64,000 nt of DNA, taken from Candidatus Cloacimonadales bacterium. GTDB taxonomy: Bacteria > Cloacimonadota > Cloacimonadia > Cloacimonadales > JAIOQZ01. Shown here in pieces: positions 1,772 through 50,904 of this stretch. Each line of letters begins with the position of its first letter. Positions within the stretch are counted from its first letter, which is position 1. The DNA lies in assembly GCA_963665815.1 (NCBI GenBank), contig OY762463.1, forward strand, positions 2,240,001 through 2,304,000. The letters are read 5' to 3'. Both the position numbers and the translations under genes were made by a program. The notes beneath the pieces are model-generated. The model did no database searches, was not told the origin of the DNA, and saw only the letters and a program-made list of their open reading frames with translations.

Positions 1772-2049
1772 AATACTTCCTTGAATATAGTCAACTCACA
1801 ATTGAGTAATACAGACTAAAATTGCAAGCAAAATCTACAGGTTTTTGTTTCTTCACAGACCTTAGGGAGAAAATCCGAAAATCAATTTTGAGAATTTCCT
1901 TTAATCATTGAGCTGAATGAACCGAAAATCAATAATATGTTTCTTATTGTTATCATTGACGTTACATACAGCAAAAAGATGTAAAATTTATTCTGAAATA
2001 AATTGACGGTATTTCTTGTTAATATAGTTTATCATTGAGAGAGGTATAT

Positions 2050-5000: not shown

Positions 5001-5064
5001 TTATTTCTTTGTCCTTAAAACAAACAATTCTCAGGATGTTAAAAAAGCTATCCTGCTGAAATAG
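2050..5064 (+). CDS. Secreted S8 subtilisin-like serine protease with C-terminal sorting (T9SS-type/FlgD-Ig) domain
   Basis: RBS GAGG before ATG 2050; signal peptide; catalytic motifs VLDTG, HGTHCAG, AAGN, GTSMATP; CTD YPSPFNPETT...SGVYF...KKAILLK. Confidence 0.93.
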   Translation: MKLLSLSFFMCLLCIAFNIVAAEQVYDSKISDDLNEAMSTNDSFIDVNIHLIGYPQGELLKMVKGMKNSEKRQFVRNELTEFNQNRQKQVISILENNPDKVDSYNTYWIANVVTARIKPELISKLSDINNVFMLDHDKNKKMLVEPATRNGETRLNTERDITQNVLDVQADMVWNNGYYGNGIIVAVLDTGVNYNHNDLAGNMWSDTQYPNHGYDFAYDDNDPMDGDGHGTHCAGTIAGQGASGTQTGIAPQATIMALKVLDDNGGGQESSVWNAAQFAIDHGANVLSISLGWSHWNNPVYSTWRSTFETVQAAGIVALVAAGNDGGSHWLQPPRNVGTPGNCPPPWLHPDQTLTGGTTAVVSIGASDGTSGVAQFSSRGPCIWSDVSPYNDYPYNPEMGLIRPDVCAPGVGITSLDYNDTYGYEHGWDGTSMATPCTAGIAALMLSKNPDLSPADINQILETTATPLVQGKNNDSGSGIVNAYQAVQAVSLPNTPPGQAINPVPADAAINIGTSPELRWERPSGARNYKFYFGTDLPPTNIVYADSLNTTHFSLDSLLSYNTTYYWRVDAVNSFAETQGNTWSFTTGSEPDIDFEEGHFVDYQWFNQTLYLWNFNQQQAYSGNYSLKSGGVPDNQASELLLTLNVLEDGYISFYRKVSCQDSDNDYADFLSFTIDDTELDRWDGEENWDIATYPVTAGQHSFSWKYQKNGTTVSGSDCAWIDYIILPPHARKLKNVNYSLENVNELSVNWESPYTSNGSYLGCRIFKNNEDYAFVDYNSPSSFVDTGLELGDTEYKLRAEYQNNIFRDIEFTINVAFEDPYNLTGTNTEHNDYEFTWSYNFPSDRIFSQFELFMDDELIGTTTDTSFVINDLTAGEHIFKVRADYDGAYSNFSPEYTLLIISNDDADVPELLPTGINSIYPSPFNPETTVSFSLEKESNSEVSVYNIKGERVTVLSKGVINAGNHSVKWTGNNDAGKSVSSGVYFFVLKTNNSQDVKKAILLK

Positions 5065-10786: not shown

Positions 10787-12430
10787 TTATTTCATTAAGA
10801 CCATTTTAGATGTTTTTGTGTAATCAGGAGTCACGAGTTTATAGAAATAAACACCTGAACTTACGTTATTACCGCTTGCATCTTTTCCTTCCCAGATAAC
10901 ACTGTCAGTTTCTTTCACTTCTCTTTTGTCGAATAATGTTACAACTTTTTGACCTTTGATGTTGTAAATTACGAGAGATGCATCAACTGTTTCACCGATT
11001 TGACCTTTAATTGAAAAATCGATTTTTGTTTTTGGGTTGAAAGGATTTGGGTAGTTTGATAAAAGATTAGTTGCTTCAACATATTCTGTAACACTTTTAC
11101 CAATTGTAATTGTTTGTGGTCCGTAGAATCCACCTGTGTTATTATCAGCTTGAACTACTTCAATCCAGTAGTAATATGTTTCATTAACAAGAACATCTTC
11201 ATCTGTATGTTGATATTCCTGAGTTCCTGATGTATTAGTAGCAGCGATGAGCTGATTACTGTTGATTGGTTCTGCATCAGTAAGATCTGCTTTAAGGCTA
11301 CGGAATAATTTGAATCCGATAAGATCTGTTTCTGATTTGGTTGACCATGTAATATTTACAAACTGATTAGCATCTTCTGAAAGATAGAAGCCTGCAAATT
11401 CAACAGGAAGTGATTGCCCAAGGCTGTTAGCACCAGGGTCAGCTGTATCTGGTGTTGTTGCCGGAGTCCAAACTGTAGGTGTTGTTTGAATTACACGTTC
11501 GTCGTTGTTAACAACAGGTGTTGTATCAATTGCCATACGTACATCCGGGATGTTAAGTGCATATGCATATCCATTACCGATTTCTAATTGTGCATCACCT
11601 TGAACAAACAAAGTATACATGTTAAGTGATACTCCCCAGGCTGCTTCAAAAGTTGCCTGATCAGCACCGTTAGAGATAATAACTGCACCGTAAGCCGGAA
11701 CTGTTCCTGAAAGTGCCACAGAAATAGCTGTTGTAACTTTTTCAATTGTTACGTTAGTAAGCTCTACTTCATCGCCTGTTACGTTTTTCACTTCGATAAA
11801 TGCTGTTGTTTCTGCTTGACCAACAAGATTATCAGAAATCTCACTGAAGAAGAGTGAACCGTCTGTAGGTTCTACAGGACCTGTGCCACCAAGAACGATG
11901 TCATGATCGCCGAAGTATGTGCCGTTATCAACTGGAGATGCATCATATTGAGTAATCTGGTTTTGAACACCACTGATGTCCCATCTTAAGTTTGTATTTT
12001 GAGCAGCATCTGCTACGTCAAATACCATTACTGCACAATCTGTCCATACGTCACCGAGCATGTAGCACATCATAGGTGTGGTACTTACTCCATTATATAC
12101 ACCATTGATACCGCATTTAATGGCTGACATTTCTGCAGGTACAAGTTGATAGATATCCATTTCGAAAAATATATGATCTTCGATTGGACCAAGACTGTAA
12201 GATTCTGCATTGTTATAAGTAAGACAAGCATTGTTAAAAAGTATACGAAGGTTAAAGAAACCAACAGGAACATCTCCTGCATTTGATTTCACTTGTAGTT
12301 TTACTTTGTATTTTCCATTTGCTGCATCGTATCCCATGCCATCTGCATCGTATACCATGTTATAGTCAATGGAAGCAAAAATTGTGCTTATTAATGTTAA
12401 AACAAACACTAAAGCTAATAATTTTTTCAT
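10787..12430 (-). CDS. Secreted protein: cohesin-like N-domain, lamin-tail-like domain, LPVEF Ig-like domain, C-terminal sorting domain
   Basis: Signal peptide; KVKLQVKS...VGFFNLRILFNNACLTY beta-sandwich; FSEISDN..AFIEVKN; LPVEFAGF; NYPNPFNP...SGVYFYKL...KMVLMK. The CDS is certain; the cohesin call is inference. Confidence 0.75.
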   Translation of the reverse strand: MKKLLALVFVLTLISTIFASIDYNMVYDADGMGYDAANGKYKVKLQVKSNAGDVPVGFFNLRILFNNACLTYNNAESYSLGPIEDHIFFEMDIYQLVPAEMSAIKCGINGVYNGVSTTPMMCYMLGDVWTDCAVMVFDVADAAQNTNLRWDISGVQNQITQYDASPVDNGTYFGDHDIVLGGTGPVEPTDGSLFFSEISDNLVGQAETTAFIEVKNVTGDEVELTNVTIEKVTTAISVALSGTVPAYGAVIISNGADQATFEAAWGVSLNMYTLFVQGDAQLEIGNGYAYALNIPDVRMAIDTTPVVNNDERVIQTTPTVWTPATTPDTADPGANSLGQSLPVEFAGFYLSEDANQFVNITWSTKSETDLIGFKLFRSLKADLTDAEPINSNQLIAATNTSGTQEYQHTDEDVLVNETYYYWIEVVQADNNTGGFYGPQTITIGKSVTEYVEATNLLSNYPNPFNPKTKIDFSIKGQIGETVDASLVIYNIKGQKVVTLFDKREVKETDSVIWEGKDASGNNVSSGVYFYKLVTPDYTKTSKMVLMK

Positions 12431-20811: not shown

Positions 20812-21346
20812 AAAGATCTCCGGAATTCTAAATAGAATTAATATAATAAGCTATGAGAGCTTTGCATAATAGCAAAATCAAACAGCTTTATTAAAAAAGT
20901 ATCGATGAGATTTTTGAATTCATCAAGTGAACTTCTTAGAGAAGCTTATTCTTAGTCAAAGCTTGATAAATTTTAAAATCGACTCAACTACTATAATTAT
21001 GCAAAGGTTTCACTATTTATAATTACAATATAATCTCTTTTTAAATCTATTAACACAAAAATAATATAAATAATGATCCCCGAACATGGGAGTATGTTGA
21101 CTTTGGCTTTTGAACTACTAAATATTTACCAACAACAACAGACTAATGAGTACCTTCATGAGATTTCTAATGTTCCTCAAAAATCCGATACAAACTAAGT
21201 CAGATTCTGCTGTTTGGGGACAAAATCCCTTTATGAAATTAATTCATATCTTCTGTCAGGTTTTGTCAAATAAAAGAATACAAAATCAAATAATTGACAT
21301 AAAACAAGGATTATTTTTATTTAGAAAAAAAGATTTGAAGGTGATC

Positions 21347-22186
21347 ATGAATTTTCAGAACATGGTATTCAGTTTACAAAAATATTGGGCAGAACATAAC
21401 TGTAATGTAATACAACCATATGACGTTGAAATGGGAGCAGGTACTTTCCATCCGGCAACATTCTTCGGAGCTCTCGGGAGTAAACCTACATCTGTAGCAT
21501 ATATTCAACCTTGCAGAAGACCTAAAGACGGTCGTTATGGTGAAAATCCCAACAGACTTCAGCATTATTATCAGTTTCAGGTAATTATAAAACCAACACC
21601 GGATAATATTCAGGACTTATATCTTAAAAGTCTGGAAGCTATCGGAGTAAATATAAAAGAGCACGATATCCGTTTTGTTGAAGATGACTGGGAATCTCCT
21701 ACACTCGGTGCCTGGGGACTTGGCTGGGAGGTCTGGCTTGACGGTATGGAAATATCTCAGTTTACATATTTCCAGCAGGTTGGCGGTATAGACTGTTTTC
21801 CTGTGACTGTTGAGCTTACTTACGGACTTGAACGTCTCGCAATGTATATCCAGAATGTAGATGACTATAGAGATCTGCAATGGAATGATACAACTAAGTA
21901 CGGAGAACTGTTCTTTCAGAAGGAAGTAGAATACAGTAATTTTAACTTCCATGAAGCGAATATAGAATTGAAAAGACAGGAGTTTGAGAACTTCGAGAAG
22001 GAAATACCAAGGCTGCTTGATAAAAAACTCACTTTCCCGGCTTATGATTATCTTCTGAAAGCTTCCCACGTGTTCAATCTGTTAGATTCTCGCGGAGTTG
22101 TAAGCGTGACGGAAAGAGCGGCGTATATCCTCAGAATACGCAATATGGCTAAAAAATGTGCTGAAACTTATATAGACTCTGAATAG
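21347..22186 (+). CDS. glyQ: Glycine--tRNA ligase alpha subunit
   Basis: [91 protein letters not shown]. True start is ATG 21347 after GAAGG. Confidence 0.98.
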
Positions 22187-22206
22187 AAAACAAGAGCAAA
22201 AATTTT

Positions 22207-22242
22207 TACAGGCTGCGGATTTTTCTGTGGCCTTTTTTTATT
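22207..22242 (+). terminator. glyQ terminator; copy 1 of a ~35-bp direct repeat
   Basis: AGGCTGCGGA-TTTT-TCTGTGGCCT hairpin plus T tract; near-identical to 24961-24994. Confidence 0.8.
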
Positions 22243-22420
22243 GACAAATTCCTGAAACGCTATTAACAATTGCATTGTTATTTTGTTTTGTGGGTGGAAA
22301 ATACCCGATAATGTAGAATTGGTAACGCTTAACAGCATTTGTGTGTGAATTTCAAAAACCGGATACCTTATTAAAATGCCCTCTAATCAAGAAATTTCTG
22401 CATCATGTTTCTTTATCATT

Positions 22421-22564
22421 GTATAGTAAATTTTTCCGTTTAGAAATCCTGAAGCCTTGGAAGGATTTCAGGGAAGATTTACGGTTACAGCTTGCTGTAA
22501 ATACATTTTGATAAAGATGTCATTTCTTTTGCTTCGTTTTCTTTGGACATTCAAAGAAAATGAA
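22421..22564 (+). repeat. Structured dispersed intergenic element, copy A (ncRNA or MITE-like)
   Basis: Aligns to the reverse complement of 51680-51820 (about 85% identity over 22421-22530 by manual count), with conserved hairpins. Confidence 0.85.
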
Positions 22565-22746
22565 GGTAGCTCAACTTCGAAAACAAGAAAGGCAAATTAT
22601 AACCCCCAAAAAGTGAGGATTACAGTATGAAACACTGGTTTTTTCCATAAGCAGGAATATTGAAATATAAAGAAATAACTAACAACATAACTGTAAAAAT
22701 TTGACAAGCAAAACGATTTAACTATAATTAAGAAAAAAGAAAAAGT

Positions 22747-23685
22747 ATGAAAAATATATTAATTATAATATTTGCTGCAAATCTATCAATTATTCTTTTT
22801 GGTGAAAATCAAATTCGATTCGAACCAGACAACATCGAAGTTATTGATGGAAAATCTTACATATTGTTTCATTTAGAAGATCATTATGCATCTAGAGATG
22901 ATATGAGCCGAGAAAGTGTTAGCAACACGAACACAAGAGTTTCATCAGGTGTAGATGGTGGAGTCCAACCTAAGTTCACCTCAGCATTCAAGAAAAGCAG
23001 AGATTTTGTGAAGTTCAGTTATCAGAATCCAAAATTTATTTTCTCAAACTTATCTTACAAAGACTTTGAACAATATGGAAAGAATTATGACAAAATACCT
23101 TATCAATTACCTGAAGAAATTTTAGGGAGCCTTACAACTGAAGAACTGATTCTTTATTGCTGTGACCACCCAAGTCTGAAATTTGCATCAATAAGAACAT
23201 GTGCTAAAAGTAAGTTGGCAATAGAAAAGGATGAGCCTGAAGCTCTATCACAATTTAATGGTTACAAGGAACTAATCAGAAGAAGCAATTTCATCCTTGA
23301 AATATTGGACTTATTAGAAGAAAGTTGCATTGAAAATTCAGAGAGGAAAAAAAACATTGAAAAATATATAGTAACGGGTAATATATACAAGAATTATGAT
23401 GATATATCCATACTAGCAGGTGCTTTGTTTAGCTTAATATCTTCCAGATCAATTTATCATTCTATTACTGAGCAAGACAGAATAAATGTTACATTGTTAG
23501 TAAAAAAAATGTACGAATCGAGATTATTTAGCTCTTCAGTGGGACTTTATGCATTTCTTATTAACTACCACTATGAACACATTGCTAAATGGAGAGAGTA
23601 TTTTGTTTATGAAAGCCCAGTAATAATTAGTATAAAAAAGGACTTGAGTGATGTTTTTTACCTGCTTGCACGAGGTGCAGAATGA
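22747..23685 (+). CDS. Secreted hypothetical protein
   Basis: 312-aa ORF with a signal-peptide-like N-terminus; its stop overlaps the next ATG (ATGA). Confidence 0.7.
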   Translation: MKNILIIIFAANLSIILFGENQIRFEPDNIEVIDGKSYILFHLEDHYASRDDMSRESVSNTNTRVSSGVDGGVQPKFTSAFKKSRDFVKFSYQNPKFIFSNLSYKDFEQYGKNYDKIPYQLPEEILGSLTTEELILYCCDHPSLKFASIRTCAKSKLAIEKDEPEALSQFNGYKELIRRSNFILEILDLLEESCIENSERKKNIEKYIVTGNIYKNYDDISILAGALFSLISSRSIYHSITEQDRINVTLLVKKMYESRLFSSSVGLYAFLINYHYEHIAKWREYFVYESPVIISIKKDLSDVFYLLARGAE

Positions 23686-30770: not shown

Positions 30771-30993
30771 TATACTAACAATAAACTTTACAATACTTTA
30801 CAGCTTCTTACATCATTTGCTAAGCAGGATATTAGGCATTTAAGTTTAATCGGCTTCAGGAATAGAAATGATTTGACAAATTGGACATACTTAAATAATA
30901 ATTGAACAAAAATTAAAAATATGCTTATGCATAGTTGTTTAAACAGCTTGATTTTGCTGTTATGTTAAGAAATCAAAAATAGTGAGGAGCTTT

Positions 30994-33933
30994 ATGAAAA
31001 AAAATTTGACTTTACTTTTTATTTTTATAATTGCAAGTACTATATTTGCTTCCATTGACTACAATATGGTGTATGATAGCGATGGAATGGGATATGATTC
31101 ATTAAACTGCAAATACAAGGTAAAACTTCAAGTGAAATCCAATGACGGTGATGTGCCGGTTGGTTTCTTTAACCTTCGTGTGCTTTACAATAACTCCTGT
31201 CTTACCTACAATATTAACGAATCTTACAGCCTTGGACCAATAGAAGACCATGAGTTCAATTCTATTGATGTCTATACTCTTGTCCCTGTTGAAATGTCAT
31301 CTGAGAAATGTGGGATCAACGGTGTATACAACGGTGGAGATAGTAGTCCTGTGATGTGTTATAATCTTGATAACACATGGACTGATTGTGCGGTCCTTGT
31401 TTTTGATGTTGTCGAGCCAGCCCAAAGTACAGATTTAAGGTGGGACTCCAATGGTGTGCAGAATCAGATAACATTATATGATTCATCTCCTGTCAGTAAT
31501 GGGACATTTAACGGAGATCATGATATTGTGATTACTCCTGGGTTACTTTCTATACCTGCGGATGACACCTTGATTTACTTCAGTGAAATATCTGACAACC
31601 TTTCCGACCAATCGCAATTAACAGCTTTCATTGAATTAAGTAATGTGACTCAAGATAATTTGAATCTTGCCGGAGTAAGTGTAGTAAATCTGACTTCAGG
31701 ATATACTGTAAACCTATCCGGAATTGTTCCTGCCAACGGTATTGTAATTATCTCAAATGGAGCGGATCAGGCAACTTTCGAAGCAGCCTGTAATGTAACA
31801 CTTGATATGAGTAGAACAGTATTCATACAAGGAGATACTTCAATCAGTATTGGTAATGGATATAATTACTCACTAAGAGTTCCGGATTCTCGTTTAGAAA
31901 TAGACAGAACCCATACTATATATAGCAATGAGCAAAAGCTTCACTTATCTCCTGAAATATGGAGCAGTAAATCAACTCCTGAGGATGCAAATCCCGGAGT
32001 CATGACTCAATCTTTTATTCTCCCTGTAGAATATGCTACTTTCTATCTTACAGAGACTATTGATCAGTATGTTAATGTTAATTGGACAGCAGAATCTGAA
32101 AACAACCTTCTTGGCTACAGATTATACCGAAGTATCAGTAACAGACTTACAGATGCAGTTCCATTAAACAATGGTCAGGTTATTGCAGCTACTAATAATT
32201 CACAAACTTGCAACTACCAATATACAGACTCTAATGCAGTAACAGGTGTGAAAAATTATTACTGGATTGAAATAGTCCAGGCTGACAACAACTCAGGTGG
32301 TTTTCTTGGGCCACAAAATATTAATGTTTCAGAATATTCTGTTGATTCCATTGATTACAATATAGTATATGATACAGATGGTATGGGATATGACGATGCA
32401 AATGATAAATACAGAATAAAACTTCAGATCAAATATAACAATGGCGTTGCTCCAATTGGTTTCTTTAACCTTCGTATACTCTATAATGATGCATGTCTAG
32501 CGTACAACAATGCTGAATCTTACAGCCTTGGTCCAATTGAGGACTTTGAATTCTTCGGAATGGATATATACAACCTTGAACCAATTGAAATGTCTTCCAT
32601 CAAATGCGGTATCAATGGTGTATACGCTGGAATAATCGATTACCCAATGTTCTGCTATAATCTTGATAACACATGGACAGACTGTGCAGTTATGGTATTT
32701 GACGTAGTAGATTTTACTCAAGGCACTAACATAAGGTGGGACATGAACGATGCTCAAAATCAGGTGACATTATATGATGCATCACCACTTCCTAACGGCA
32801 TATTCACAGGTGACCATAATATAGCACTCAATGCTGGGACACCTGTTGCCTATTATATGCTTTTTTTCAGTGAAATTTCAGACAATCTTTCAGGTCAATT
32901 AGAAACAACAGCATTCATAGAACTAATAAATATAACTCATTATGACTTAGATCTTACAGGAGTAACCGTAGTAAATGTTATGACATCATATACAGAAACC
33001 CTTTCCGGTATAATTCCTCCTTACGGTTCAGTTGTTATTTCCAATGGAGCAGATCAGGCATCTTTCGAAAATGCGTGGGGAATATCATTTGATACGGCTT
33101 ACTCAGTTTTTATTCAAGGTAGCCCACAATTAGAAATTGGTAATGGATATGCCTACTCTCTCAACATTCCTGATTCTCGTGAAGTAATAGATACAACACC
33201 AGTTATATATAACAATGAACGTCATTATCAGCGGGGTCCTTCAATATGGGTTCCGCCAACAACTCCAGATACAGCTGACCCTGGTAATGACAGTCCCGGA
33301 CAAACACTTCCTGTAGAGTTTTCATCATTTACATTGTCAAAGACTAATAATGATTTTGTCAGTATAACATGGTCAACAAAATCAGAAACAGACCTTATCG
33401 GTTTCAGATTGCTGCGTAGCGATAATGATGAAATTTCATCAGCTATTCCACTAAACAATGCTCAGCTTATTGCAGCCACAAACACTTCAGGAACAACAGA
33501 CTACAGTTATGTAGACGATGAAGTTGCTTTAGAAACAACTTATTACTACTGGATTGAAATAGTTCAAGCTGATAATAACTCAGGTGGATTCCACGGACCG
33601 CAAGCTATTACCATCGAGAAAGATGCTGTTGACTTCTGCGACGCAACAGTTCTTAAAGGTAACTATCCTAATCCGTTCAACCCCGAAACAACTATCAGTT
33701 TTTCACTCAAAGGGTACTCAGATGAGCAAGTTGACGTTTCTCTTGAAGTATATAACATCAAGGGACAAAAGGTTAAAACATTACTGAACGGAAAAATTAA
33801 TCCTATGAGTCAGCATGATGTAAAATGGAATGGTAAAGATTCAAATGGTAATTCTTTAAGCTCTGGTGTGTATTTCTATAAACTAGTGACTCCGGATTAC
33901 ACCAAAACAGCTAAAATGCTCTTAATGAAATAA
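30994..33933 (+). CDS. Secreted protein with two tandem [cohesin-like, lamin-tail-like, LPVE Ig-like] modules and C-terminal sorting domain
   Basis: Module starts SIDYN at 31051 and 32347 (1296-nt period); each module is closely similar to 10787-12430; CTD NYPNPFNP...SGVYFYKLVTPDYTKTAKMLLMK. Confidence 0.8.
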   Translation: MKKNLTLLFIFIIASTIFASIDYNMVYDSDGMGYDSLNCKYKVKLQVKSNDGDVPVGFFNLRVLYNNSCLTYNINESYSLGPIEDHEFNSIDVYTLVPVEMSSEKCGINGVYNGGDSSPVMCYNLDNTWTDCAVLVFDVVEPAQSTDLRWDSNGVQNQITLYDSSPVSNGTFNGDHDIVITPGLLSIPADDTLIYFSEISDNLSDQSQLTAFIELSNVTQDNLNLAGVSVVNLTSGYTVNLSGIVPANGIVIISNGADQATFEAACNVTLDMSRTVFIQGDTSISIGNGYNYSLRVPDSRLEIDRTHTIYSNEQKLHLSPEIWSSKSTPEDANPGVMTQSFILPVEYATFYLTETIDQYVNVNWTAESENNLLGYRLYRSISNRLTDAVPLNNGQVIAATNNSQTCNYQYTDSNAVTGVKNYYWIEIVQADNNSGGFLGPQNINVSEYSVDSIDYNIVYDTDGMGYDDANDKYRIKLQIKYNNGVAPIGFFNLRILYNDACLAYNNAESYSLGPIEDFEFFGMDIYNLEPIEMSSIKCGINGVYAGIIDYPMFCYNLDNTWTDCAVMVFDVVDFTQGTNIRWDMNDAQNQVTLYDASPLPNGIFTGDHNIALNAGTPVAYYMLFFSEISDNLSGQLETTAFIELINITHYDLDLTGVTVVNVMTSYTETLSGIIPPYGSVVISNGADQASFENAWGISFDTAYSVFIQGSPQLEIGNGYAYSLNIPDSREVIDTTPVIYNNERHYQRGPSIWVPPTTPDTADPGNDSPGQTLPVEFSSFTLSKTNNDFVSITWSTKSETDLIGFRLLRSDNDEISSAIPLNNAQLIAATNTSGTTDYSYVDDEVALETTYYYWIEIVQADNNSGGFHGPQAITIEKDAVDFCDATVLKGNYPNPFNPETTISFSLKGYSDEQVDVSLEVYNIKGQKVKTLLNGKINPMSQHDVKWNGKDSNGNSLSSGVYFYKLVTPDYTKTAKMLLMK

Positions 33934-34133: not shown

Positions 34134-36707
34134 TTATTTCAATAAGACAGCTTTTCTTGTTTCAACTGTATTACCTGATTCTATTCTGATGAAATAAACC
34201 CCTGAAGAAACATTGCCTGAATTGCTATCTTTTCCATCCCAGACAACTTCTTCAATCTTATTAGCTTCTTTGAATCCTTCATTAAATGTTCTGATAAGCT
34301 GTCCTTTAATGTTGTATACGGAAATCATAACATCACCATCTTCATAGATGCTGTATTCAATAGTTGTGCGTGGATTGAACGGATTAGGGTATATTCTATG
34401 AATACCGGATGCGATTGTTACATCAGGTGTATCATCATCTTTATCACGTTTAATTGTGATACTTACAGGTCCGAAATACTTGCTGTTACTGTTGAAGTCC
34501 AGTGATTCCAACCAGTAAAAGTACTCTGTTTCATACTCAATGTCTTCATCAGTAAAACTGTAAGTATGTTCTGTAGATGTATTAGTTCCTGCAATCATGT
34601 TTCCATTGACATTTACAGCATCAGCAACATCTTTTAAATTACTTCTGAGAACATTAAAACCGAGGTTATTGTTTTCGGATTGAGTTACCCAATTTAGCTG
34701 AGCAAAATCTGAGATGGTCTGAACAGCATTGAAAGAAGCAAGCTCAACAGGCAGGGTTGTGTCACCACCACCGTTAACAACAAATTCTTCGGTTCCTCTT
34801 GCAGAGGATGTCCATGTAAATGTAACCTGCCCGGGAGTTGAGAAGTCTGCACCGGATGAAACACTTACATCACTCCAGTCAGATCCGTTCCAATAAACAA
34901 GTTCATTAGGCGAAAGAGTATTACTGAAGTAGAAGGTTGTTGTTGTTTGAATCCCTGTTGGATAGAATGCACTGAAAGATGCCGCACAGTTTTCCGGTTG
35001 TGGAAGAGGATTTGAAGGTTGATCACTAACCTGTACAGGTATGATTGGTATAAGTGGCACAGATGCAAAGACAAAGTTTAGTGTTGGCTGGATATCACCC
35101 TGTCCTAAGTCAATAGCAGGCATGACCAAAGTAGGAGGGTTTGTTACGTTTACATTTTCGAGTTGGTTATATACGACCTCAGTCGGTTCCTGAGGGGAAT
35201 TTTCTCCGGGATCATCCATAACAGTGAAGGATGATGTAATTGGGTATTGATTATCCCCATAACCATTATAGGCAACAACTGACCATTCAACTGTTCTTCC
35301 ATACTCACTAATTGGCAAAATCTGACTATATAGTTTATCTGTTGTGTACGGCACATTAGCAATCATGTTTTCGTCACAATAAACCTTGAATCCTGTAGGG
35401 AGGTTACCACCTGCATACTTCCAGTTTACAGTAACCTGTCTCGGCATATCAGTAGACATATGCACAGGAAATACATTAAGAGTTGCAGAAGGAATTGCAA
35501 TACTATTATATATATGAACAGTACTGGAGTTTGGGATACTATTGTATTCATTTGCGGATGCAATAAAAACATCATTGTCTGAGACAGCAACTGATTTACC
35601 AAAGTGTTCTCCTCCGGAAGGAGTTGTAAGCTTAATCTTCTGTGTTTGATTCCAGTGAATAGTGTTATCGCGAGTAAATACATACGCAGCACCGGAGGCA
35701 GAAGATGATTCGATGTCAGCAAATCTTGCACCGATAACAGCAGTATCTCCATTAAGGGCAACGTATTCTCCAAAGCAGTCTCCGGCAGCATTATCTGTTG
35801 GACAGATACTTGGGGTCAACATCCACCTGCCAAAATTGTCAAAGTAGTAATAAATAAATGCTTCACCGGATGTTGAACCATTAATATTTCCACCCGGTGC
35901 TCCAATAAGAACTTGATCATCATAAACTGCTACCGAAGCACCAAAATCTCTTGTGTTATCATGATTTAAAGGTCTTGCTATTTCTAAAAAACTAAGTGAG
36001 TTCAAACTGTAAAATCTGAATAAAGACACAGATCCATATACACTATCATTACCAAGTGTATATACTTCATCAGGATCACCCACTGCAATTAATGTACTGT
36101 CGATATCTACTGAAGTACCAAACGACATAGAGTTAGGAGAATTATATGCTTCCAGTTTCACTATTTGAGACCATGTATTTATGTTGCGCTTAAAAACATA
36201 GGCTGCTCCAGTACCACATCCTTTTGCACCTATAACTGCATAATTTCCATCAATCGCAACGTCACAACCAAAATAGTCTCCTGCACTTCCGTCCGATGCT
36301 GTAAACTTATAAATCTGTGTCCATGTCATATCACTGACTTTTTTAAAGAGATAAGCTGCTCCTGCACTATCACCGTTATCATTATCTCCTTGAGCTCCGA
36401 TTATTGCAAAATCTCCTGAAATATCGACAGAACGACCAAAGAAGTTTTGTTCAGCCGGATCAGAAGGAGTAAGCCTGGCCTGTTGAACCCACAATGAACC
36501 TGCATTTACAAATATATAGGCAGCCCCGTTGTTGATGCCTGAATCATTCTCATCAGCACCAATAATGGCATTATTCTCATCTATTGCAACACTATATCCA
36601 AATTCATCTCCTGAAAAATCTGAAGAATAAATATCTTGAGTTGGAAGCCAGTCACAATGAAGGAGGAGGTTGATTAGAACAAATGAAATAAAGAATAGTC
36701 TTCTCAT
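34134..36707 (-). CDS. Secreted protein: N-terminal FG-GAP beta-propeller, conserved stalk, C-terminal sorting domain
   Basis: Repeats FGxSVxI.G..A.IGA...GAAY.F; stalk PRQVTVNW...; LPVELASF; IYPNPFNPRTTIEYS...RKAVLLK. Confidence 0.88.
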   Translation of the reverse strand: MRRLFFISFVLINLLLHCDWLPTQDIYSSDFSGDEFGYSVAIDENNAIIGADENDSGINNGAAYIFVNAGSLWVQQARLTPSDPAEQNFFGRSVDISGDFAIIGAQGDNDNGDSAGAAYLFKKVSDMTWTQIYKFTASDGSAGDYFGCDVAIDGNYAVIGAKGCGTGAAYVFKRNINTWSQIVKLEAYNSPNSMSFGTSVDIDSTLIAVGDPDEVYTLGNDSVYGSVSLFRFYSLNSLSFLEIARPLNHDNTRDFGASVAVYDDQVLIGAPGGNINGSTSGEAFIYYYFDNFGRWMLTPSICPTDNAAGDCFGEYVALNGDTAVIGARFADIESSSASGAAYVFTRDNTIHWNQTQKIKLTTPSGGEHFGKSVAVSDNDVFIASANEYNSIPNSSTVHIYNSIAIPSATLNVFPVHMSTDMPRQVTVNWKYAGGNLPTGFKVYCDENMIANVPYTTDKLYSQILPISEYGRTVEWSVVAYNGYGDNQYPITSSFTVMDDPGENSPQEPTEVVYNQLENVNVTNPPTLVMPAIDLGQGDIQPTLNFVFASVPLIPIIPVQVSDQPSNPLPQPENCAASFSAFYPTGIQTTTTFYFSNTLSPNELVYWNGSDWSDVSVSSGADFSTPGQVTFTWTSSARGTEEFVVNGGGDTTLPVELASFNAVQTISDFAQLNWVTQSENNNLGFNVLRSNLKDVADAVNVNGNMIAGTNTSTEHTYSFTDEDIEYETEYFYWLESLDFNSNSKYFGPVSITIKRDKDDDTPDVTIASGIHRIYPNPFNPRTTIEYSIYEDGDVMISVYNIKGQLIRTFNEGFKEANKIEEVVWDGKDSNSGNVSSGVYFIRIESGNTVETRKAVLLK

Positions 36708-36882: not shown

Positions 36883-39402
36883 TTATTTCAATAAGACAGC
36901 TTTTCTTGTTTCAACTGTATTACCTGATTCTATTCTGATGAAATAAACCCCTGAAGAAACATTGCCTGAATTGTTATCTTTTCCATCCCATACAACTTCT
37001 TCAATTTTGTTCGCTTCTTTGAATCCTTCATTAAATGTTCTGATAAGCTGTCCTTTAATGTTGTATACAGAGATCATAACATCACCGTCTTCATAGATGC
37101 TGTACTCAATTGTTGTGCGAGGATTGAACGGATTAGGGTATATTTTGTGGATTCCTGCACCAATCTGTACGTCAGGTGTATCATCATCCTTGTCACGCTC
37201 AATTGTGATTCTTACAGGTCCGAAATACTTGCTGTTACTGTTGAAGTCCAGTGATTCCAGCCAGTAGAAGTATTCTGTTTCATACTCAATGTCTTCATCA
37301 GTAAAACTGTAAGTATGTTCTGCAGATGTGTTTGTTCCGGCAATAATGTCATAATTTACCTTTACAGCTTCAGCAACATCTTTGTAGTTACTTCTGAGAA
37401 TATTAAAACCAAGGTTGTTGTTTTCGGATTGAGTTACCCAGTTGAGTTGTGCAAAATCTGAGCTTGTCTGAACAGCATTGAAAGAAGAAAGCTCAACAGG
37501 CAGGGTTGAATCTCCTCCACCGTTAACTGCAAACTCTTCATCAGCTCTGCTTGATGATGTCCATGTGAAAGTTACCTGTCCCGGAGTAGAAAAGTCTGCC
37601 CCGGAAGTAACAGTAACATCATCCCAATCAGCACCGTTCCAGTGTACAAGTTCATTTGGGGAAGTAGTGTTACTGAAATAGAAGACGATTGTAGTCTGGT
37701 TGTTCACTGGGAAGAATGCACTCAAAGCAGCAGCACAGTTTTGTGGCTGAGGAAGAGGGTTTGAAGGTTGGTCCATCACTTGTACGGAAAGAGTTGGAAT
37801 TGTTGGAGCATTATCATAATTGAAATTCAGAGTAGGCTGAATATCTCCCTGTCCAAGATTAATTGGCGGCATTGTAATGGTAGGTGGATTAGTCACTGTG
37901 ACATTTTCCAGCTCGTTGTAAACAACTTCATCAGGTTCTTCTGCTTCACCCGTACCGGGATCATTCATTATATAGAATGTCCATGTTACAGGACCCGAAC
38001 ATTCGCCAGCCACGTTGTATGGCACAACTTTCCAGATTACGGTAGAGCCGTAAGCAGCAATATCAAGATCTTTATAGTAAAGTTTATCGGTTGTATAAAG
38101 TATGTTTGATCCTATTTGAGAACCATTCTGGTAAACTTTGAAACCTGTTGGAGTTCCGGATCCACTATACCGCCAGTTAACTGTAACACTTCTGGGCATA
38201 TCAATGCTGTTGTTGGCTGGGAAAACATTGGTTGCAGCATCGGGAAGAGTTGTGAAGGAATTGTTTGCACCATACGTTGTACCTTCGGAATTAACTGCTT
38301 TCACTCTAAAGTTATACTCTGTAGCATCATCCAGACCTGTAATACTTTTAGATACGGGAGTGTTCGTTCCTCCCGTCAAAGGACTTTGATCTGCAGTTAC
38401 AGTTGAACCATAGGCAACAGTTTCACCATATTCAAATGTAATTGTCGTTTCTGCTCCATTATCGTTAACTGTACCGTTGAGTATTGCTGAGGAAGATGTA
38501 ACACTTCCTGCTGCATTTGATACAGCAGTTGGTGCTGATGCTGATGAACCAAAGGTTTGCCCTATCTCAATATCAAATCCATCATACGACTTGAATGTGC
38601 TGAGACCAGAGCCATCAAGATTACATTTTGCAATTCTTGATTGTGTGTTGTCCTCTTCAATATAATAAAGCTTTTCATTAACAGTATCAATGGCTATTCC
38701 AAATATCTGACCTGTTACTGCATCACTTAGAGCTGCAACAAAAGCATCATTACTTCCGTCAATATCACACTTTCTTAAATTCCATGTCCCTTCGGAAAGT
38801 GCATAATATATCTTCCCATTGTAATATGCAAGAGCCTGGGCACTAACACTTTTCACTGTTGATACATTTGTTCCGTCCGGATCACAGCTTTTAATGGCTC
38901 CACTTCCGGAAACGTTGTCAGCAAAGTACAACTTATTATTATCACCATCATATACAACTGCATCAATTTTCCCTGTAGATGGATTTCCAGGAAGTAACAG
39001 CTGAGTATCTCCTGTTCCATCAACATTACACGATCTCAAATCCCAATCACCGGAATTTTTTGCGTAGAATAATTTCCCATCACCATATGCGATAGGTTTA
39101 GCTTTTTGAGCAATTACTGTTCCTGCTCCTGTACCATTAGTATTGATTTTTCTGATATAACTCGTCCCGGTATTGCTTTGATGAGTGAAATAGACAACAT
39201 TGTTTGTTACATCCACGGCTATTCCCGGAATATAATCATTAATATCCGGTAAAGCGTAAAATTCTGATTCTGAAGATCCATCTAAATTGCTTTTCTGCAA
39301 ATTAGAGGAACTGTCCTCGTTTAAAGAAAAGAAAACTGAATTTTGTGCCGAAAGAGACACTAACAAAAACAATAAAATCGATAAAAACACCATTTTCTTC
39401 AT
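36883..39402 (-). CDS. Secreted protein: N-terminal YWTD/DUF5050-like beta-propeller, FN3-like domain, conserved stalk, C-terminal sorting domain
   Basis: Repeats GIA.D..N.K.Y....I.(K/S)C(N/D).DG(S/T); SAILNGTVN.NG..T...FEYG; C-terminal ~450 aa paralogous to 34134-36707. Confidence 0.88.
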   Translation of the reverse strand: MKKMVFLSILLFLLVSLSAQNSVFFSLNEDSSSNLQKSNLDGSSESEFYALPDINDYIPGIAVDVTNNVVYFTHQSNTGTSYIRKINTNGTGAGTVIAQKAKPIAYGDGKLFYAKNSGDWDLRSCNVDGTGDTQLLLPGNPSTGKIDAVVYDGDNNKLYFADNVSGSGAIKSCDPDGTNVSTVKSVSAQALAYYNGKIYYALSEGTWNLRKCDIDGSNDAFVAALSDAVTGQIFGIAIDTVNEKLYYIEEDNTQSRIAKCNLDGSGLSTFKSYDGFDIEIGQTFGSSASAPTAVSNAAGSVTSSSAILNGTVNDNGAETTITFEYGETVAYGSTVTADQSPLTGGTNTPVSKSITGLDDATEYNFRVKAVNSEGTTYGANNSFTTLPDAATNVFPANNSIDMPRSVTVNWRYSGSGTPTGFKVYQNGSQIGSNILYTTDKLYYKDLDIAAYGSTVIWKVVPYNVAGECSGPVTWTFYIMNDPGTGEAEEPDEVVYNELENVTVTNPPTITMPPINLGQGDIQPTLNFNYDNAPTIPTLSVQVMDQPSNPLPQPQNCAAALSAFFPVNNQTTIVFYFSNTTSPNELVHWNGADWDDVTVTSGADFSTPGQVTFTWTSSSRADEEFAVNGGGDSTLPVELSSFNAVQTSSDFAQLNWVTQSENNNLGFNILRSNYKDVAEAVKVNYDIIAGTNTSAEHTYSFTDEDIEYETEYFYWLESLDFNSNSKYFGPVRITIERDKDDDTPDVQIGAGIHKIYPNPFNPRTTIEYSIYEDGDVMISVYNIKGQLIRTFNEGFKEANKIEEVVWDGKDNNSGNVSSGVYFIRIESGNTVETRKAVLLK

Positions 39403-39696
39403 AGTTCCTCCAAGTAAGTGTTACTTAATTTATATATGTATATAATTAAAAAATAATATAATAGATAGAGGGGGATTCTGGCAATATAAAAATATTATTA
39501 ATCGCTGAAATGATATCTATTATAGATAATATAATTTGATTACCCAATTAACTTATTGACATTTTTTCTGAACTTTGTTAGTATGAAGAGCTAAGATATT
39601 AGTTCACAGGAAAATAATATTCATTTAACATTCCTGTATAATACTTGTGCAAAGATGATTTATACTGCTAATAAACATAACAGGAGAATAGATAAT

Positions 39697-42600
39697 ATGA
39701 AAAGAACACTCTTCTCACTTTTAATTTTGATTTTTATAGTGAACCTTACCGCTACCGTTACAGAAACCTTTGAAAACGGTTCTAAAAGCAGTTATGCACT
39801 TGGCTCTGTTGATCTGGATTCCGGAAACTGGTCTTTTGAAAATGCTCTGCTCGGAACACTTGATAATGACAGGAAATTCGATTCCAAATCTGTACGAGTT
39901 AGATATGAATCTGCTCTTCCGGGAAACTTTTTCATGAATTTCGATAAAACCGATGGTGTTGGAGAGTTCAAAATCTATCATGCCAGATATGGTTCTGATC
40001 TTAACCAGAGCTGGACTCTTTACATGTCGACAGACTCAGGCTCTTCCTGGAATCAGGTCGGTTCAGAAGTACAGACTACAAGTACGACTCTTGCTCAGGA
40101 AACATTTTCCATTAACCAGTCTGGTAATGTCCGATTCAAAATTGTTATTACAAGCGGTGTTGCCAGTGATAGATTAAACTTCGATAATGTTGAAATAACT
40201 GATTACGGCAGTGGATCAAGTGTTGTTGCCCCACAGGCTTTTACTGCAACTGCAAACGGAGAAAATGATATACAGCTTGCTTTCCAGACTAACGGAACCG
40301 ATCCGGTATTTATTGTTTACGATATGAACAATACATTCTCTTCACCGACAGACGGAGATGCTGTGCCTTCTGTAGGTTCTGCATATGTCGGTGGGACAGT
40401 GCTATATAACGGTTCAGGAACTTCATACAATCATACAGGTTTGAATGCAGGAGATCACGTTTATTACAGAATATACTCAGTAGACACTAATAATGACTAC
40501 TCAACATATCTTTCTGATGATGCAACAACAGAGACGAATTATTATTCAGGAATCTCAGGAACCGGTGCAACTCTTAAAGCTCAGCTTTCAAATCTTATAG
40601 ACGGACATACAAGTATTTCCTATACTGCTGCAAGATATGCTTTGGAAGTTCTTGATGCCGATCCGGAAATTCCGGGAAATATCGTATCTTTCTATACAGG
40701 CTGGTCATTCTCAAACACATTATGGAACGTAAGTAATGGCTGGAACAGAGAACACGTCTGGTCTCAATCTCATGGAGATCTTGATGACAATAATTCTGAT
40801 GGTTACACAGATCTTCACCATTTAAGAGCAGAAGACGCAACCGTTAATGCTGCCAAAAACAACAGAGATTTTGATGAAGGTGGATCAGCATATACGGACT
40901 CTTCTCCTGCAGAAGGAACAAGCGGAGTTACAGGCTGTTATTCTGATGATGCAAATTGGACATGGGAACCAAGGGACGAAGTAAAAGGCGATGTTGCTCG
41001 AGCTATACTCTATATGGATACACGTTATGAAGGTAACAACGGTGAACTTGATCTGGAAATTCTGGATGATACAGATGTAGCCCCTAATCATGAGCCTTAT
41101 TACGGCAAACTTACTACATTGCTCAGATGGCACAATGAAGACCCTGTAAGCACTGAAGAAGCAGCCCGAAATGAGTTGATATATACAGATTATCAGCATA
41201 ACAGAAATCCGTATATTGATCATCCTGAATATGCAGGATTGGTTTACGGTAATCCTGTAACCAATCAATCTATAAGCAGCTACAACTTCGGTAATGTTGA
41301 AGTTGGCTATGAATCTGATGAGGTATCCTTCACTGTTACCGGAACAGACCTTTATGATGATGTAACTGTTACCGCTCCTTCAGGATTTATGGTTTCACAT
41401 ACTTCCGGTTCAGGATTTACACAATCAATTACTCTACCGATGTTTACAAGATCTGTTAATACAACAGTATATATGAAGTTTGCTCCTCTTGTGGAAACAG
41501 CTTATATTGGTGATGTAATTGTCAGCAGCCCTTACGATGATGGTGTTAATATTATATCTGTTTCCGGAATTGGTGGAGGTGGCGCAGCAGGAGCTGAACT
41601 TGTTATTAATGAATGGTCTCAGGGATCTGACGGAGCTAAAGAATGGGTAGAACTCCTGATTCTTTCCGAGAATGCTGACATCAGCGGTTATCACCTGACA
41701 GACGGAAATGGTTCACTTGATATTGAATTTTCAGGAACAGGATTTAACAATCTTGCTCAGGGTTCAGTGATTGTGATATATAACGGTGGCGATGTTGATG
41801 GAGTTATTACTCCTGATCTTAACTATGACGGAGCAGGCGACAAATCATTACAAATATCTTCTCTGAATGATACAGGTGATTGGGCTCTAACCAGAAACAC
41901 AGGCTGGAGCAATACAAGTGGAGCTTTCTCCAACAGTACATCTACGGATGTTCCACAAATAGCTGATGGAAGAACAATTCTATTTACATGTCCTAAGCAT
42001 GCTGCAGGTAATGAAACAGCGTATTTTACAGAAAACTCAGTTCAACTTGCTCAAGACTCAGCTAACTGGGTAACTGACGTATCTACAAACGCCTCACCGG
42101 CAACCGGAAACGGTGGCAACAATACAATCTGGGTTGTTACTCTTCCTGTAACACTTTCTTCTTTCAATGGTGTATTTACTGCTGAAGAAGAAGTGGAACT
42201 TAACTGGATTACAGAATCTGAATCAGAAATGATGGGATATAAAGTATTCAGAGCTCCAGAAGATAATTTTGCAATTACACAGATTGTCTCAAATCTCATC
42301 CCGGCTCTTAATAATTCTACTCAGACTCAATACAGTTATACTGACACAGATATTGAGACAAACAGCATGTACTATTACTGGATAGAAAGTATTGATAATG
42401 CAGGAATGGCGAGGTATTATGGACCGGTTACGGTTTCTACGGAAGTTGAAGATGTTGTTGAACCTGACTTCTACCCAAGCACCGGTATTGTAGGAAACTA
42501 TCCTAACCCATTCAATCCCGAAACAAAAATTGTATATAGCATAAAAGGAACTGAAAACGAGTATACCCATGTTGATTTAAGGATATATAACATCAGAGGA

Positions 42601-50889: not shown

Positions 50890-50904
50890 TCTCTGCGAAA
50901 CCTT

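Follow-up and report, generated by a model that had tools for sequence, protein, structure and literature searches.

An intergenic sequence that occurs twice in a 64,000-nt stretch of a Candidatus Cloacimonadales genome (the window, by which we mean the whole stretch analysed) raises the question of whether its copies represent a structured RNA, a regulatory leader of the genes that follow or the trace of a mobile element, all of which had been entertained in a preliminary description of this DNA. Both copies were located where that description had placed them and are 87.3% identical over an alignment of 158 nt; a 24-mer common to the two occurs exactly twice in the window, against 0.00 occurrences expected. 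The element proved to be longer than first described, its outer helix (P0, see below) lying partly beyond the proposed start. According to the covariance model, the whole of copy A spans positions 22402-22565 of the forward strand (cmsearch score of 184.9 bits, E = 5e-35), with a folded core that begins at 22411, and copy B spans positions 51679-51840 of the reverse strand (162.4 bits).

The two copies belong to a family of at least 32: two in the window, 18 in a single Candidatus Cloacimonadales MAG and 12 spread over seven Flavobacteriaceae genomes, the flavobacterial carriers including cultured marine Leeuwenhoekiella, Aquimarina and Kordia. A scan for an exact 18-mer spanning the apical loop of helix P1 returned the 18 copies in this MAG and copies in eight flavobacterial loci; altogether, 28 of the 32 copies were recovered via this 18-mer and four by the covariance model alone, and the copy counts are lower bounds because the genome scan required the exact 18-mer. 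The model separates the family cleanly from other sequences: its 32 matches score 74.7-184.9 bits, the next best one 33.7 bits, and 29 loci with only a chance match to the 18-mer score 16.6-21.3 bits. Copies from Cloacimonadales and Flavobacteriaceae are 70-80% identical to each other. The count of copies called for in the preliminary description thus shows the element to be multi-copy and dispersed, and at times tandem or clustered.

At the gathering score, Rfam 15 matched only two tRNAs in the whole window, leaving the element unmatched, and returned no matches for 14 loci; when two regions were searched at E ≤10, the best overlapping scores were far under gathering (21.6 vs 45 and 25.7 vs 51). 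Neither the SAM-II, SAM-V and preQ1-II models (at E ≤10) nor the guide-RNA families of Rfam matched, and ARAGORN detected no tRNA or tmRNA gene in positions 22200-22800. By blastn, one Cloacimonadales and one flavobacterial copy had no match in 72,556 plasmid and 50,697 phage records. Literature searches, part of them poorly aimed, yielded no account of the element. A degenerate third copy near copy A, considered as the source of a shared 12-mer, was not found with filters off. The earlier suggestion of an unannotated structured RNA outside any named family is supported, and we tentatively regard the element as an undescribed multi-copy RNA family common to Cloacimonadales and Flavobacteriaceae, a degree of caution that applies to the whole of the explanation developed below.

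The element, which is ~155-165 nt long, folds into a three-way junction of helices P0, P1 and P2, followed by an H-type pseudoknot at the 3′ end. In copy A (forward strand), the junction is closed by P0, in which CTTTATCA (22411-22418) pairs with TGATAAAG (22509-22516); all of its 7+1 pairs change on both sides among the copies. P1 is a long hairpin (22426-22482) that comprises a lower stem (22426-22437 with 22471-22482), a conserved asymmetric internal loop (22438-22442), an upper stem, P1b (22443-22450 with 22462-22469), and an 11-nt apical loop, GAAGCCTTGGA (22451-22461). This loop is identical in 32/32 copies from both phyla, including the four copies found without the 18-mer; no target for it emerged in the window, where its complement is confined to the two copies themselves, save for a single site with one mismatch, against 0.95 expected. 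Both-side changes affect 11 of the 12 pairs of P1 and four of the eight pairs of P1b (e.g. CCU/AGG to UUC/GAA and UUU/AAA). The replacement of U.G by C-G in the enclosing stem, corresponding to P1, had been recognized correctly. Conversely, the inner hairpin CCTGAA..TTCAGG had been set in the wrong register, covariation among the other copies favouring GAAATCCT/AGGATTTC with the 11-nt loop. P2 (22485-22500) is a hairpin with the stem TTACAG/CTGTAA and a variable loop; its conversion to TTCCAG/CTGGAA is a compensatory change, as had been claimed, both sides vary in four of its six pairs, and the pair 22487/22498 holds rank 2 in a structure-blind mutual-information list.

Copy B has the same parts on the reverse strand, namely P0 (51824-51831 with 51725-51732), P1 (51804-51815 with 51759-51770), P1b (51791-51798 with 51772-51779) with its apical loop (51780-51790), P2 (51751-51756 with 51741-51746), the pseudoknot strand S1 (51720-51724), a candidate third strand (51710-51718) and P4 (51697-51709 with 51679-51692, loop 51693-51696). 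The minimum free energy (MFE) of copy A is -51.3 kcal/mol, vs -40.2 for the antisense strand (z of -6.49), and 100% of the consensus pairs are present in its MFE fold; for copy B this proportion is 96%.

As judged from the alignments, the fold is shown to be maintained by compensating changes in both phyla, all five helices and the pseudoknot covarying. In an alignment fitted to the covariance model, 95.1% of the cells pair, vs 46.8-63.4% in slid controls, both sides change in 34 of 52 pairs, and the covariation score is 0.397 vs 0.055-0.103, with none of 500 shuffles as high. A structure-blind MAFFT alignment gave 91.0% pairing (vs 44.7-61.1%) and both-side changes in 25 of 53 pairs, and the ten best APC-corrected mutual-information column pairs all correspond to base pairs of the proposed structure. 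The larger alignment that the preliminary description had named as a check thus revealed strong covariation. Cells with G.U far outnumber those with A.C (98 vs 14), so the fold is that of the sense-strand RNA. The sense MFE is below the antisense one in 31/31 copies (median z of -4.42), and single-sequence MFE folds recover a median of 83% of the consensus pairs. The element is non-coding. Its purine strand terminates in AAAAUGAAR in 28/31 copies, the AUG being lost in the other three, and a coding reading was rejected, as the frames starting from this conserved AUG are 2-31 codons long and mutually unrelated. In three related loci, an 87-aa ORF runs across the element, and Pfam offers no match for it.

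In the 3′ domain, the 5′ strand of the pseudoknot, S1 (ATGTC; 22517-22521), pairs with the loop of hairpin P4 (GACAT; 22546-22550), and the pair 22520/22547 is the top mutual-information pair. Runs of at least four contiguous base pairs between S1 and the P4 loop are present in 11 of 17 distinct combinations, vs 20% of 254 mismatched combinations, and the flavobacterial copies possess six different complementary S1/P4-loop sequences. The pseudoknot is weaker in one Cloacimonadales subfamily; it contains an internal mismatch in the subfamily with a GTCATA loop, and copy B retains 3 bp only. P4 (22532-22565) is a 14-bp hairpin (22532-22545 with 22552-22565, loop 22546-22551), rather than one of 9 bp as initially described, and the second pyrimidine tract reported on its 5′ side is present. 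The foot of P4 forms the exact 3′ boundary of the element and is also where the similarity between genera stops. Pairs at the ends of P4 covary (C-G, U-A and G-C at the foot; G-C or A-U at the top), and the central 8 bp show no variation in 30/30 rows.

Between S1 and P4 lies a candidate third (Hoogsteen) strand (22522-22531), which consists of a variable nucleotide N (22522), the invariant TTTCTTTT (22523-22530) and a linker G (22531). TTTCTTTT matches AAAGAAAA (22553-22560) of P4 base for base and in parallel orientation, and the arrangement of the invariant UUUCUUUU parallel to AAAGAAAA suggests a nine-layer major-groove triple helix. UUUCUUUU would thereby occupy the major groove of P4 as about nine stacked triples, i.e. 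seven U.A-U, one C.G-C and a variable top layer. The three tracts of this putative triplex are invariant (30/30 rows) and hence provide no covariation of their own, and the flanking pairs on either side covary; the invariance of the tracts could be equally explained by protein binding. The nucleotide N covaries with the top pair of P4: it is G in six of seven distinct copies with an A-U top pair vs 1 of 23 with G-C (Fisher p = 8e-5), an association that comes from two independent lineages only. In L003 and L012, which carry a mini-insertion, N comes from the insert, and the T of the L019 insert was counted as non-G; without these three copies, the counts are 5/6 and 0/21. PMC7583470 counts C or U over C-G as one of the most stable non-canonical triples and describes a G.U-A triple in the SAM-V triplex. 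Since AAAGAAA is mirror-symmetric, the third strand could instead form an alternative Watson-Crick hairpin of 7 bp. The loop left for crossing the pseudoknot stem is 0-3 nt long (0 nt in ten Cloacimonadales copies), so that space would be tight if the top of P4 did not open.

The account that we tentatively favour is that of a family of discrete RNA genes with a knotted fold, a triplex cap at the 3′ end and P1 loops that bind a partner. The RNA, ~155-165 nt in length, would be transcribed as a discrete unit from the sense strand (forward for copy A). Its knotted 3′ end would set the RNA 3′ terminus and block 3′-to-5′ exonucleases, and the invariant loops of P1 would provide the working surface for a conserved partner, whether protein or RNA; the copies would have been duplicated within each lineage and kept as RNA genes. 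Our best guess is an RNP or small RNA module whose 3′ cap would resist nucleases. When the 160 nt preceding the copies were scanned with sigma-70-like and Bacteroidetes-type motifs, no promoter site emerged at a fixed distance, and terminator-like sites within 200 nt downstream were found for 0/31 copies. Terminator-like sites do lie upstream of both window copies (22210-22233 on the forward strand for copy A; 51927-51915 on the reverse strand for copy B), as the preliminary description had stated, but a position after a terminator is not a trait of the family: it applies to 8/31 copies, and one of these eight sites falls inside a neighbouring copy.

Large pseudoknotted bacterial RNAs with such covariation and no home in Rfam are now rare, and RNAs of this kind, such as riboswitches, ribozymes and guide RNAs, have often opened new biochemistry. 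Here, sequence and fold have been kept across two phyla in a multi-copy element, and the candidate triplex looks to be among the longest natural RNA triple helices. A more far-reaching version, which we hold to be doubtful, is that the family constitutes a new bacterial RNA class with a nine-layer U.A-U/C.G-C triplex within a 3′ pseudoknot, a prokaryotic counterpart of MALAT1/ENE present in numerous copies per genome throughout the Fibrobacteres-Chlorobi-Bacteroidetes (FCB) group and serving as a stable RNP scaffold; if true, its triplex would have about the same length as the longest RNA triplex known from nature. In a still bolder variant, the variable bases past the element would be guides, and an RNA-guided protein could draw on the copies as a natural library. 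As the family is present in cultured Leeuwenhoekiella, Aquimarina and Kordia, transcript ends, triplex and partner are directly testable.

The strand order of the 3′ domain is that of the H-type pseudoknot triplex RNAs (telomerase RNA, e.g. that of Kluyveromyces lactis, SAM-II, SAM-V and preQ1-II): stem 1, U-rich loop 1, stem 2 and a short loop 3 follow one another, the U-rich loop has the same polarity as the purine strand of stem 2, and stem 1 arises where a strand further upstream pairs with the stem 2 loop. The triples of K. lactis telomerase RNA, U.A-U with one C.G-C (PMC7583470), are also those proposed for the element. It would have about nine layers, however, vs 2-6 in these H-type triplexes, and differs from these RNAs in being dispersed and multi-copy, in its extra three-way-junction domain and in leaving the Rfam models unmatched; it is linked neither to methionine or queuosine genes nor to a telomerase context. 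The element further resembles ENE/MALAT1 in that two U-rich strands would clamp an A-rich tract at the 3′ end of the conserved RNA, a single C.G-C being placed among U.A-U layers. In ENEs, known from viruses and eukaryotes, the U-rich strands face each other across the internal loop of a single stem-loop, whereas those of the element are consecutive (22523-22530 and 22537-22544) and arranged in pseudoknot topology. The MALAT1 triplex comprises nine U.A-U and one C.G-C (PMC7583470), a length comparable to that of the candidate described here, and the prokaryotic triple helices named in the consulted passages of two reviews are short and belong to riboswitches and group II introns (PMC7583470, PMC13541005).

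The main rival explanation is that the element supplies the RNA component of a mobile or RNA-guided system and is mobilised, or put to use in trans, by a protein whose gene lies elsewhere; it would be either a non-autonomous derivative retaining a scaffold that resembles TnpB omegaRNA/TldR gRNA or a reverse-transcriptase template. Fold and loops would be a protein handle, and the variable 3′ DNA would be a guide or an insertion flank. We consider this possible, if rather unlikely. Its multi-copy, dispersed and sometimes tandem occurrence in two phyla would be expected of such an RNA, as would the outcome of comparisons between genera, in which the core alone is common, with sharp ends and differing sequence past the 3′ end. 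In three flavobacterial genomes, the element separates a radical-SAM gene from a DUF4130 gene, two genes that usually form one operon; this within-operon insertion, the cross-phylum similarity and the tandem or clustered copies fit a mobile element equally well as a gene family. One MAG contig bears eight consecutive copies on the same strand, and GC skew, examined as a test of replication-linked orientation, is positive in 11/17 loci and lends no support to a replication-linked strand bias. However, neither the window (42 ORFs) nor the checked neighbours of 25 loci yielded a transposase, TnpB, tnpA, IscB or reverse-transcriptase domain, and the plasmid and phage records as well as the Rfam guide-RNA families were without a match.

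ERIC, Bacillus bcr1, MITEs and REP/BIME are repeats of similar size, multi-copy, intergenic, present in either orientation and with compensating changes between copies, and like them the element is interspersed with other small repeats to form a mosaic. It differs from them by its multi-helix pseudoknotted fold, in place of a single imperfect palindrome, and by its conservation across phyla. A MITE was rejected on account of both ends and flanks: the P0 strand at the 5′ end has its partner midway along the element rather than at the 3′ end, the two termini lack complementarity and thus form no terminal inverted repeats, and flank matches of 5-6 nt occur in 11/31 copies only, at scattered offsets, instead of a consistent target duplication. 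Both window copies have counterparts at orthologous MAG loci, and the tree pairs each with its orthologue (100/98 and 99/99); in Leeuwenhoekiella, b-type copies from two species likewise group together (100/99). Paralogues are therefore older than speciation and still at orthologous loci, so that the element is not a decaying insertion.

Guide RNAs offer a structural parallel. According to PMC10097598 and PMC13622181, TnpB omegaRNAs (reRNAs) and TldR gRNAs are ~100-130 nt long and combine stems with a triple helix and a pseudoknot, this scaffold stopping right before the variable 3′ guide segment; the element has the same kinds of parts, the triplex being putative, and a sharp 3′ end. Yet no tnpB-like gene is present in the checked neighbours, and the pseudoknot partners are different: in ISDra2, the pre-guide nucleotides form a pseudoknot with a distant 5′ segment, and the equivalent last 14 nt of the element pair locally within the P4 hairpin. 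Several copies also have 3′ flanks in common, unlike distinct guides. As for reverse-transcriptase templates, the ncRNA units of UG27 RTs, as described in bioRxiv 10.64898/2026.09.22.753630, are 149 or 167 nt long and possess a main hairpin, interrupted by an asymmetric internal loop that contains short conserved motifs, as well as a pseudoknot and an extra hairpin; these units, from phages of Bacteroidota, form tandem arrays beside the RT genes of prophages, and their sequences diverge widely. The element is chromosomal, scattered and highly conserved in sequence, with no RT in the checked loci.

It is improbable that the element acts in cis as a leader or riboswitch-like switch, in which the A-rich 3′ strand of P4, with its conserved AUG, would be a region of translation initiation that the pseudoknot and triplex hide or free so as to control a short uORF or the next gene. 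The AAAAUGAAR end and the H-type pseudoknot-plus-triplex plan, which recalls SAM-II, SAM-V and preQ1-II as tabulated in PMC7583470, would agree with this, as would the orientation of the downstream gene, which is the same as that of the element at 14/19 sites and, in keeping with the preliminary description, for both window copies (one hypothetical and one lipoyl-ligase-like protein). The cis-regulatory reading offered there is not supported, though: the element faces a convergent gene at 5/19 sites and is antisense to both neighbours at 3/19, and the downstream genes are unrelated (e.g. GroEL, glycine cleavage P protein, lipoyl ligase, hypotheticals), the element having no tie to any gene family. 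The next co-oriented gene is about 120-440 nt away, and that of copy A has a 12/12 promoter-like site of its own past the element (22701-22728). Short unrelated frames, the AUG missing from three copies and the failure of the SAM-II, SAM-V and preQ1-II models to match also argue against a leader. Action at the DNA level, through H-DNA or cruciforms in replication, recombination or chromosome organisation, or as a REP/ERIC-like selfish repeat with no role as RNA, is most improbable, for although TTTCTTTT ... TTTTCTTT is a homopyrimidine mirror repeat, the intergenic copies are numerous and form a same-strand run on one contig, and a second, small hairpin repeat inserts into the element, the excess of G.U over A.C and the sense-stable folds of 31/31 copies show that selection acts on one strand only, either as RNA or in single-stranded form, five covarying helices plus a pseudoknot exceed what a cruciform needs, and the element is not one long palindrome.

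Some further observations concern the surroundings of individual copies. A 605-aa ORF upstream of the tandem copies of locus L053 has no Pfam, NCBIfam or PDB relative, and was rejected as a nuclease candidate, no zinc-ribbon-like C terminus being discernible by eye. Finally, AAAATGCCCTCT, previously noted beside both window copies, is indeed present at 22373 and 51669, in each case as read on the forward strand.

The two similar stretches noted in the preliminary description do lie where it placed them (copy A, 22402-22565 on the plus strand; copy B, 51679-51840 on the minus strand), and share 87.3% identity across 158 nt. A 24-nt block common to both occurs exactly twice in the 64-kb window (0.00 occurrences expected from shuffles), and a covariance model search of the window retrieved no copies beyond these two. 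The comparison with Rfam that had been proposed matched no known family: Rfam 15 gave the element no match at the gathering score, whether in the window or the loci, and far-sub-threshold noise only at E-values up to 10. ARAGORN did not match the element either, nor did blastn against 72,556 plasmid and 50,697 phage records. A single scan of 185,579 species genomes, in which an exact match to the invariant 18-mer was required, retrieved 54 loci. Seventeen of these (18 matches) belong to a single metagenome-assembled genome (MAG) labelled Candidatus Cloacimonadales, and each has about 110-177 nt in common with copy A at 82-97% identity (blastn). The source of the window is a relative of this MAG, one of whose loci (L012) matches window 49424-53597 at 86-89%, while another (L002) matches the copy-A region. 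Extended similarity, reaching 70-80% over ~135 nt in the best cases, was found at eight loci from Flavobacteriaceae (Aquimarina, two Leeuwenhoekiella, two Croceivirga, strain GF1, Kordia and a Flavobacterium MAG); the other 29 loci, with the seed 18-mer alone in common with the element, served as a negative control. A covariance model built on 27 copies and searched against 320,995 bases yielded 32 hits at 74.7-184.9 bits, the next best scoring 33.7 bits and the chance loci 16.6-21.3 bits. Since four of the 32 hits, all second copies within flavobacterial loci, lack the exact 18-mer, the true copy number is higher than the scan figure.

The fold, given here in copy A coordinates, begins with helix P0 (22411-22418 with 22509-22516), which closes a three-way junction and had been left out by the earlier start at 22421. 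A conserved asymmetric internal loop links P1 (22426-22437 with 22471-22482) to P1b (22443-22450 with 22462-22469), the capping loop of which, GAAGCCTTGGA, is unchanged across all 32 copies. The small hairpin seen in the preliminary description is part of the fold (P2). The hairpin CCTGAA/TTCAGG of that description is in the wrong register: where CCT/AGG is replaced by TTC/GAA or TTT/AAA, P1b remains whole and three pairs of that register are lost (alignment read by eye). The five bases following P0 (22517-21) form the pseudoknot strand, which pairs with the loop of the last hairpin, the 14-bp P4 (22532-22545 with 22552-22565). One variable base, the invariant TTTCTTTT and a G separate this strand from P4, whose foot is the 3' end of the element.

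Covariation, which the preliminary description had suggested seeking in a larger alignment, proved strong. In the model-fitted alignment of 32 copies, standard pairs occupy 95.1% of cells (46.8-63.4% with partners slid by 1-3 columns), both partners change in 34 of 52 pairs, covariation scores 0.397 versus 0.055-0.103, and none of 500 shuffles attains any of five measures. Such an alignment is biased towards the model, and the count was therefore redone on a plain MAFFT alignment of 27 copies, where 91.0% of cells pair (versus 44.7-61.1%) and both partners change in 25 of 53 pairs. The top ten of a structure-blind mutual-information ranking are ten pairs of the proposed structure, a pseudoknot pair being first. 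Single-sequence folds recover a median of 83% of the consensus pairs, with a median z of -4.42 against mononucleotide shuffles. The excess of G.U over A.C cells (98 versus 14) and the greater stability of the sense fold in 31/31 copies indicate that the selected structure is that of the sense strand, which would most simply act as RNA. A coding function was rejected: frames from a conserved ATG span 2-31 codons and are mutually unrelated, and the ATG is missing in 3 of 31 copies. At three loci (L023 and L024, both 2430-2693; L052, 2326-2589), where a radical-SAM/HhH gene and a DUF4130 gene flank the element, an 87-codon ORF spans it; this ORF has no Pfam match and is probably spurious.

The strand 5' of the pyrimidine tract is complementary to the start of the P4 loop; six sequence versions of this match occur among flavobacterial copies, and at least four contiguous pairs are formed in 11 of 17 distinct combinations versus 20% of 254 mismatched ones. 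The resulting topology is of the H-type, with stem 1 followed by loop 1, stem 2 (P4) and a loop 3 of just 0-3 nt. Read in parallel, UUUCUUUU of loop 1 and AAAGAAAA of P4 correspond at every base; UUUUCUUU, the Watson-Crick partner, matches the latter in antiparallel orientation. None of the three tracts varies (30/30 rows), while the P4 pairs flanking them on both sides covary. The base preceding this candidate third strand covaries with the top P4 pair, being G in 6 of 7 distinct A-U copies and in 1 of 23 G-C copies (p = 8e-5). In two rows (L003 and L012) that base is supplied by an inserted mini-repeat, also present in L019; without these three copies, G is found in 5 of 6 A-U and 0 of 21 G-C copies. 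The combination of G with A-U has separate origins in a Cloacimonadales subfamily and in Leeuwenhoekiella. A review on triple helices (PMC7583470) counts C and U over C-G with the most stable of the non-canonical triples and includes G.U-A in the SAM-V triplex. On our own geometric reasoning, the one-base linker and the 5-bp extension of P4 would reflect the need of the strand to leave the major groove. The rules for DNA triplexes are likewise G over T-A and T over C-G. Taken together, the parallel match, the invariant tracts, the covariation with the top pair, the triple rules and the linker geometry point to a putative array of about nine stacked triples in P4. Against the triplex stand a 7-bp Watson-Crick alternative that the mirror symmetry would permit, the very short loop 3, absent in ten copies, and a stem 1 mismatch in one subfamily.

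Copy A is separated by a terminator-like hairpin (22210-22233) from the upstream glycyl-tRNA synthetase alpha gene (21146-22186); the hypothetical gene downstream (22747-23685) has a promoter-like site of its own (22701-22728, 12/12). Copy B, on the opposite strand, is flanked by an Fe-S/FAD oxidoreductase gene and a lipoyl-ligase-like gene and preceded by a terminator-like site (51927-51915). The description of the element as lying after a terminator thus holds for both window copies and fails across the family, where 8 of 31 copies have such a site upstream; none of the 31 has one within 200 nt downstream, and no promoter-like site was found at a fixed distance from the element. The 170 nt upstream of copy A (22229-22401) are 93% identical to those of its MAG orthologue (L002, 2283-2454), begin directly after the T-run of the terminator and contain a TTGACA box. 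The genes upstream of them differ (glyQ in the window, an amino-acid permease/EIIA fusion in the MAG), and those downstream share only 76.6% identity, all of which hints that a transcription unit may be conserved here. The 12-mer AAAATGCCCTCT noted earlier at 22373 and 51669 was located at both (22373-22384 and 51669-51680, each read on the plus strand), 27 nt 5' of the fold of copy A and flush against the 3' end of copy B. A promoter-like -10 box overlaps it at copy A, where a search for a degenerate inverted copy of the element found none; akin 3' flanks (AGAGTGCATTTTT) come after three MAG copies.

In the tree, a single clade (97/97) unites the 20 Cloacimonadales-type copies. Copies A and B each pair with their own MAG orthologue (100/98 and 99/99), so that their divergence predates that of the two species. 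Likewise, b-type copies from two Leeuwenhoekiella species group together (100/99). Across flavobacterial genera the 165-nt core alone is common, and copies within genomes are sometimes tandem or clustered. The family is therefore old, is maintained at fixed loci and has been amplified within lineages. On MAG contig CALODV010000013.1 (150-725 kb), eight consecutive copies lie on one strand (L042, L019, L007, L048, L005, L045 and L032) beside genes of both directions, and the GC skew of the 5-kb loci gives no clear link between copy strand and replication direction.

We tentatively favour, at somewhat less than even confidence, a family of genes encoding a stable, structured RNA; its 3' pseudoknot and putative triplex would set the 3' end and shield it, and its invariant P1 loops would serve to bind a conserved partner. 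The main competing explanation, possible but somewhat less probable, is the RNA of a mobile or RNA-guided system. Guide RNAs of TnpB and TldR (PMC10097598; PMC13622181) likewise have stems, a triple helix (putative in our element) and a pseudoknot and end at a variable 3' segment; arrays of similar-sized units occur at Bacteroidota phage UG27 reverse-transcriptase loci, according to bioRxiv 10.64898/2026.09.22.753630. However, no such protein is encoded nearby (transposase, TnpB, IscB and reverse-transcriptase domains were found in none of the 42 window ORFs or the neighbours checked), the pseudoknot partners differ from those of guide RNAs, and 3' flanks are common to several copies. Two further explanations are less likely than either an RNA gene family or a guide-type RNA. 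A cis-regulatory switch is improbable, and a regulon leader was rejected, the neighbours being unrelated housekeeping genes. Co-orientation with the element was counted for the downstream gene at 14 of 19 sites and for the upstream one at 11 of 18 scorable sites (mechanical ORF lists, read by eye); the element is antisense to both neighbours at 3 of 19. A DNA-level repeat is very unlikely. A classical MITE was rejected, the ends of the element not being inverted repeats and the flank matches being scattered.

A second, ~32-nt repeat consists of a hairpin, GATGAAATT...AATTTCATC, followed by AAC and nearly always preceded by TTTC (L003 2424, L012 2420, L019 2579, L048 2376/2677/2749/3050 and, diverged, window 20904); it resembles a REP/PATE-type element whose target is fixed. 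In three MAG copies of the structured element it interrupts the third-strand tract, each time at one and the same TTTC. The orthologue of copy B, L012, is among them, whereas copy B has no such insertion; the tandem pair of L048 is flanked by four repeat copies. In Leeuwenhoekiella aestuarii, a variant of the element (L018 2454-2798 and 3050-3290) has an insertion in P2 and ~130 nt in place of the Watson-Crick strand of P4; it retains the third and purine strands, and its 3' half is present twice in the locus. Leeuwenhoekiella elements are embedded in larger repeated blocks (L050 2241-2453, 2768-2842 and 2932-3114; L018 2811-3100, 4225-4545 and 4789-5018), which include a GC-rich ~100-nt module and, directly 3' of the element, a conserved ~100-nt stretch with two small hairpins, neither of them found in other genera. 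A 605-aa ORF upstream of tandem copies (L053 3201-5018, minus strand, open at the locus end) has no relative in Pfam, NCBIfam or PDB. The window itself encodes six large proteins with type IX secretion C-terminal sorting domains (2035-5064, 10787-12430, 30982-33933, 34134-36707, 36883-39402 and 39655-42768), among them a subtilase and an Endonuclease I protein, which fits an FCB-group organism.
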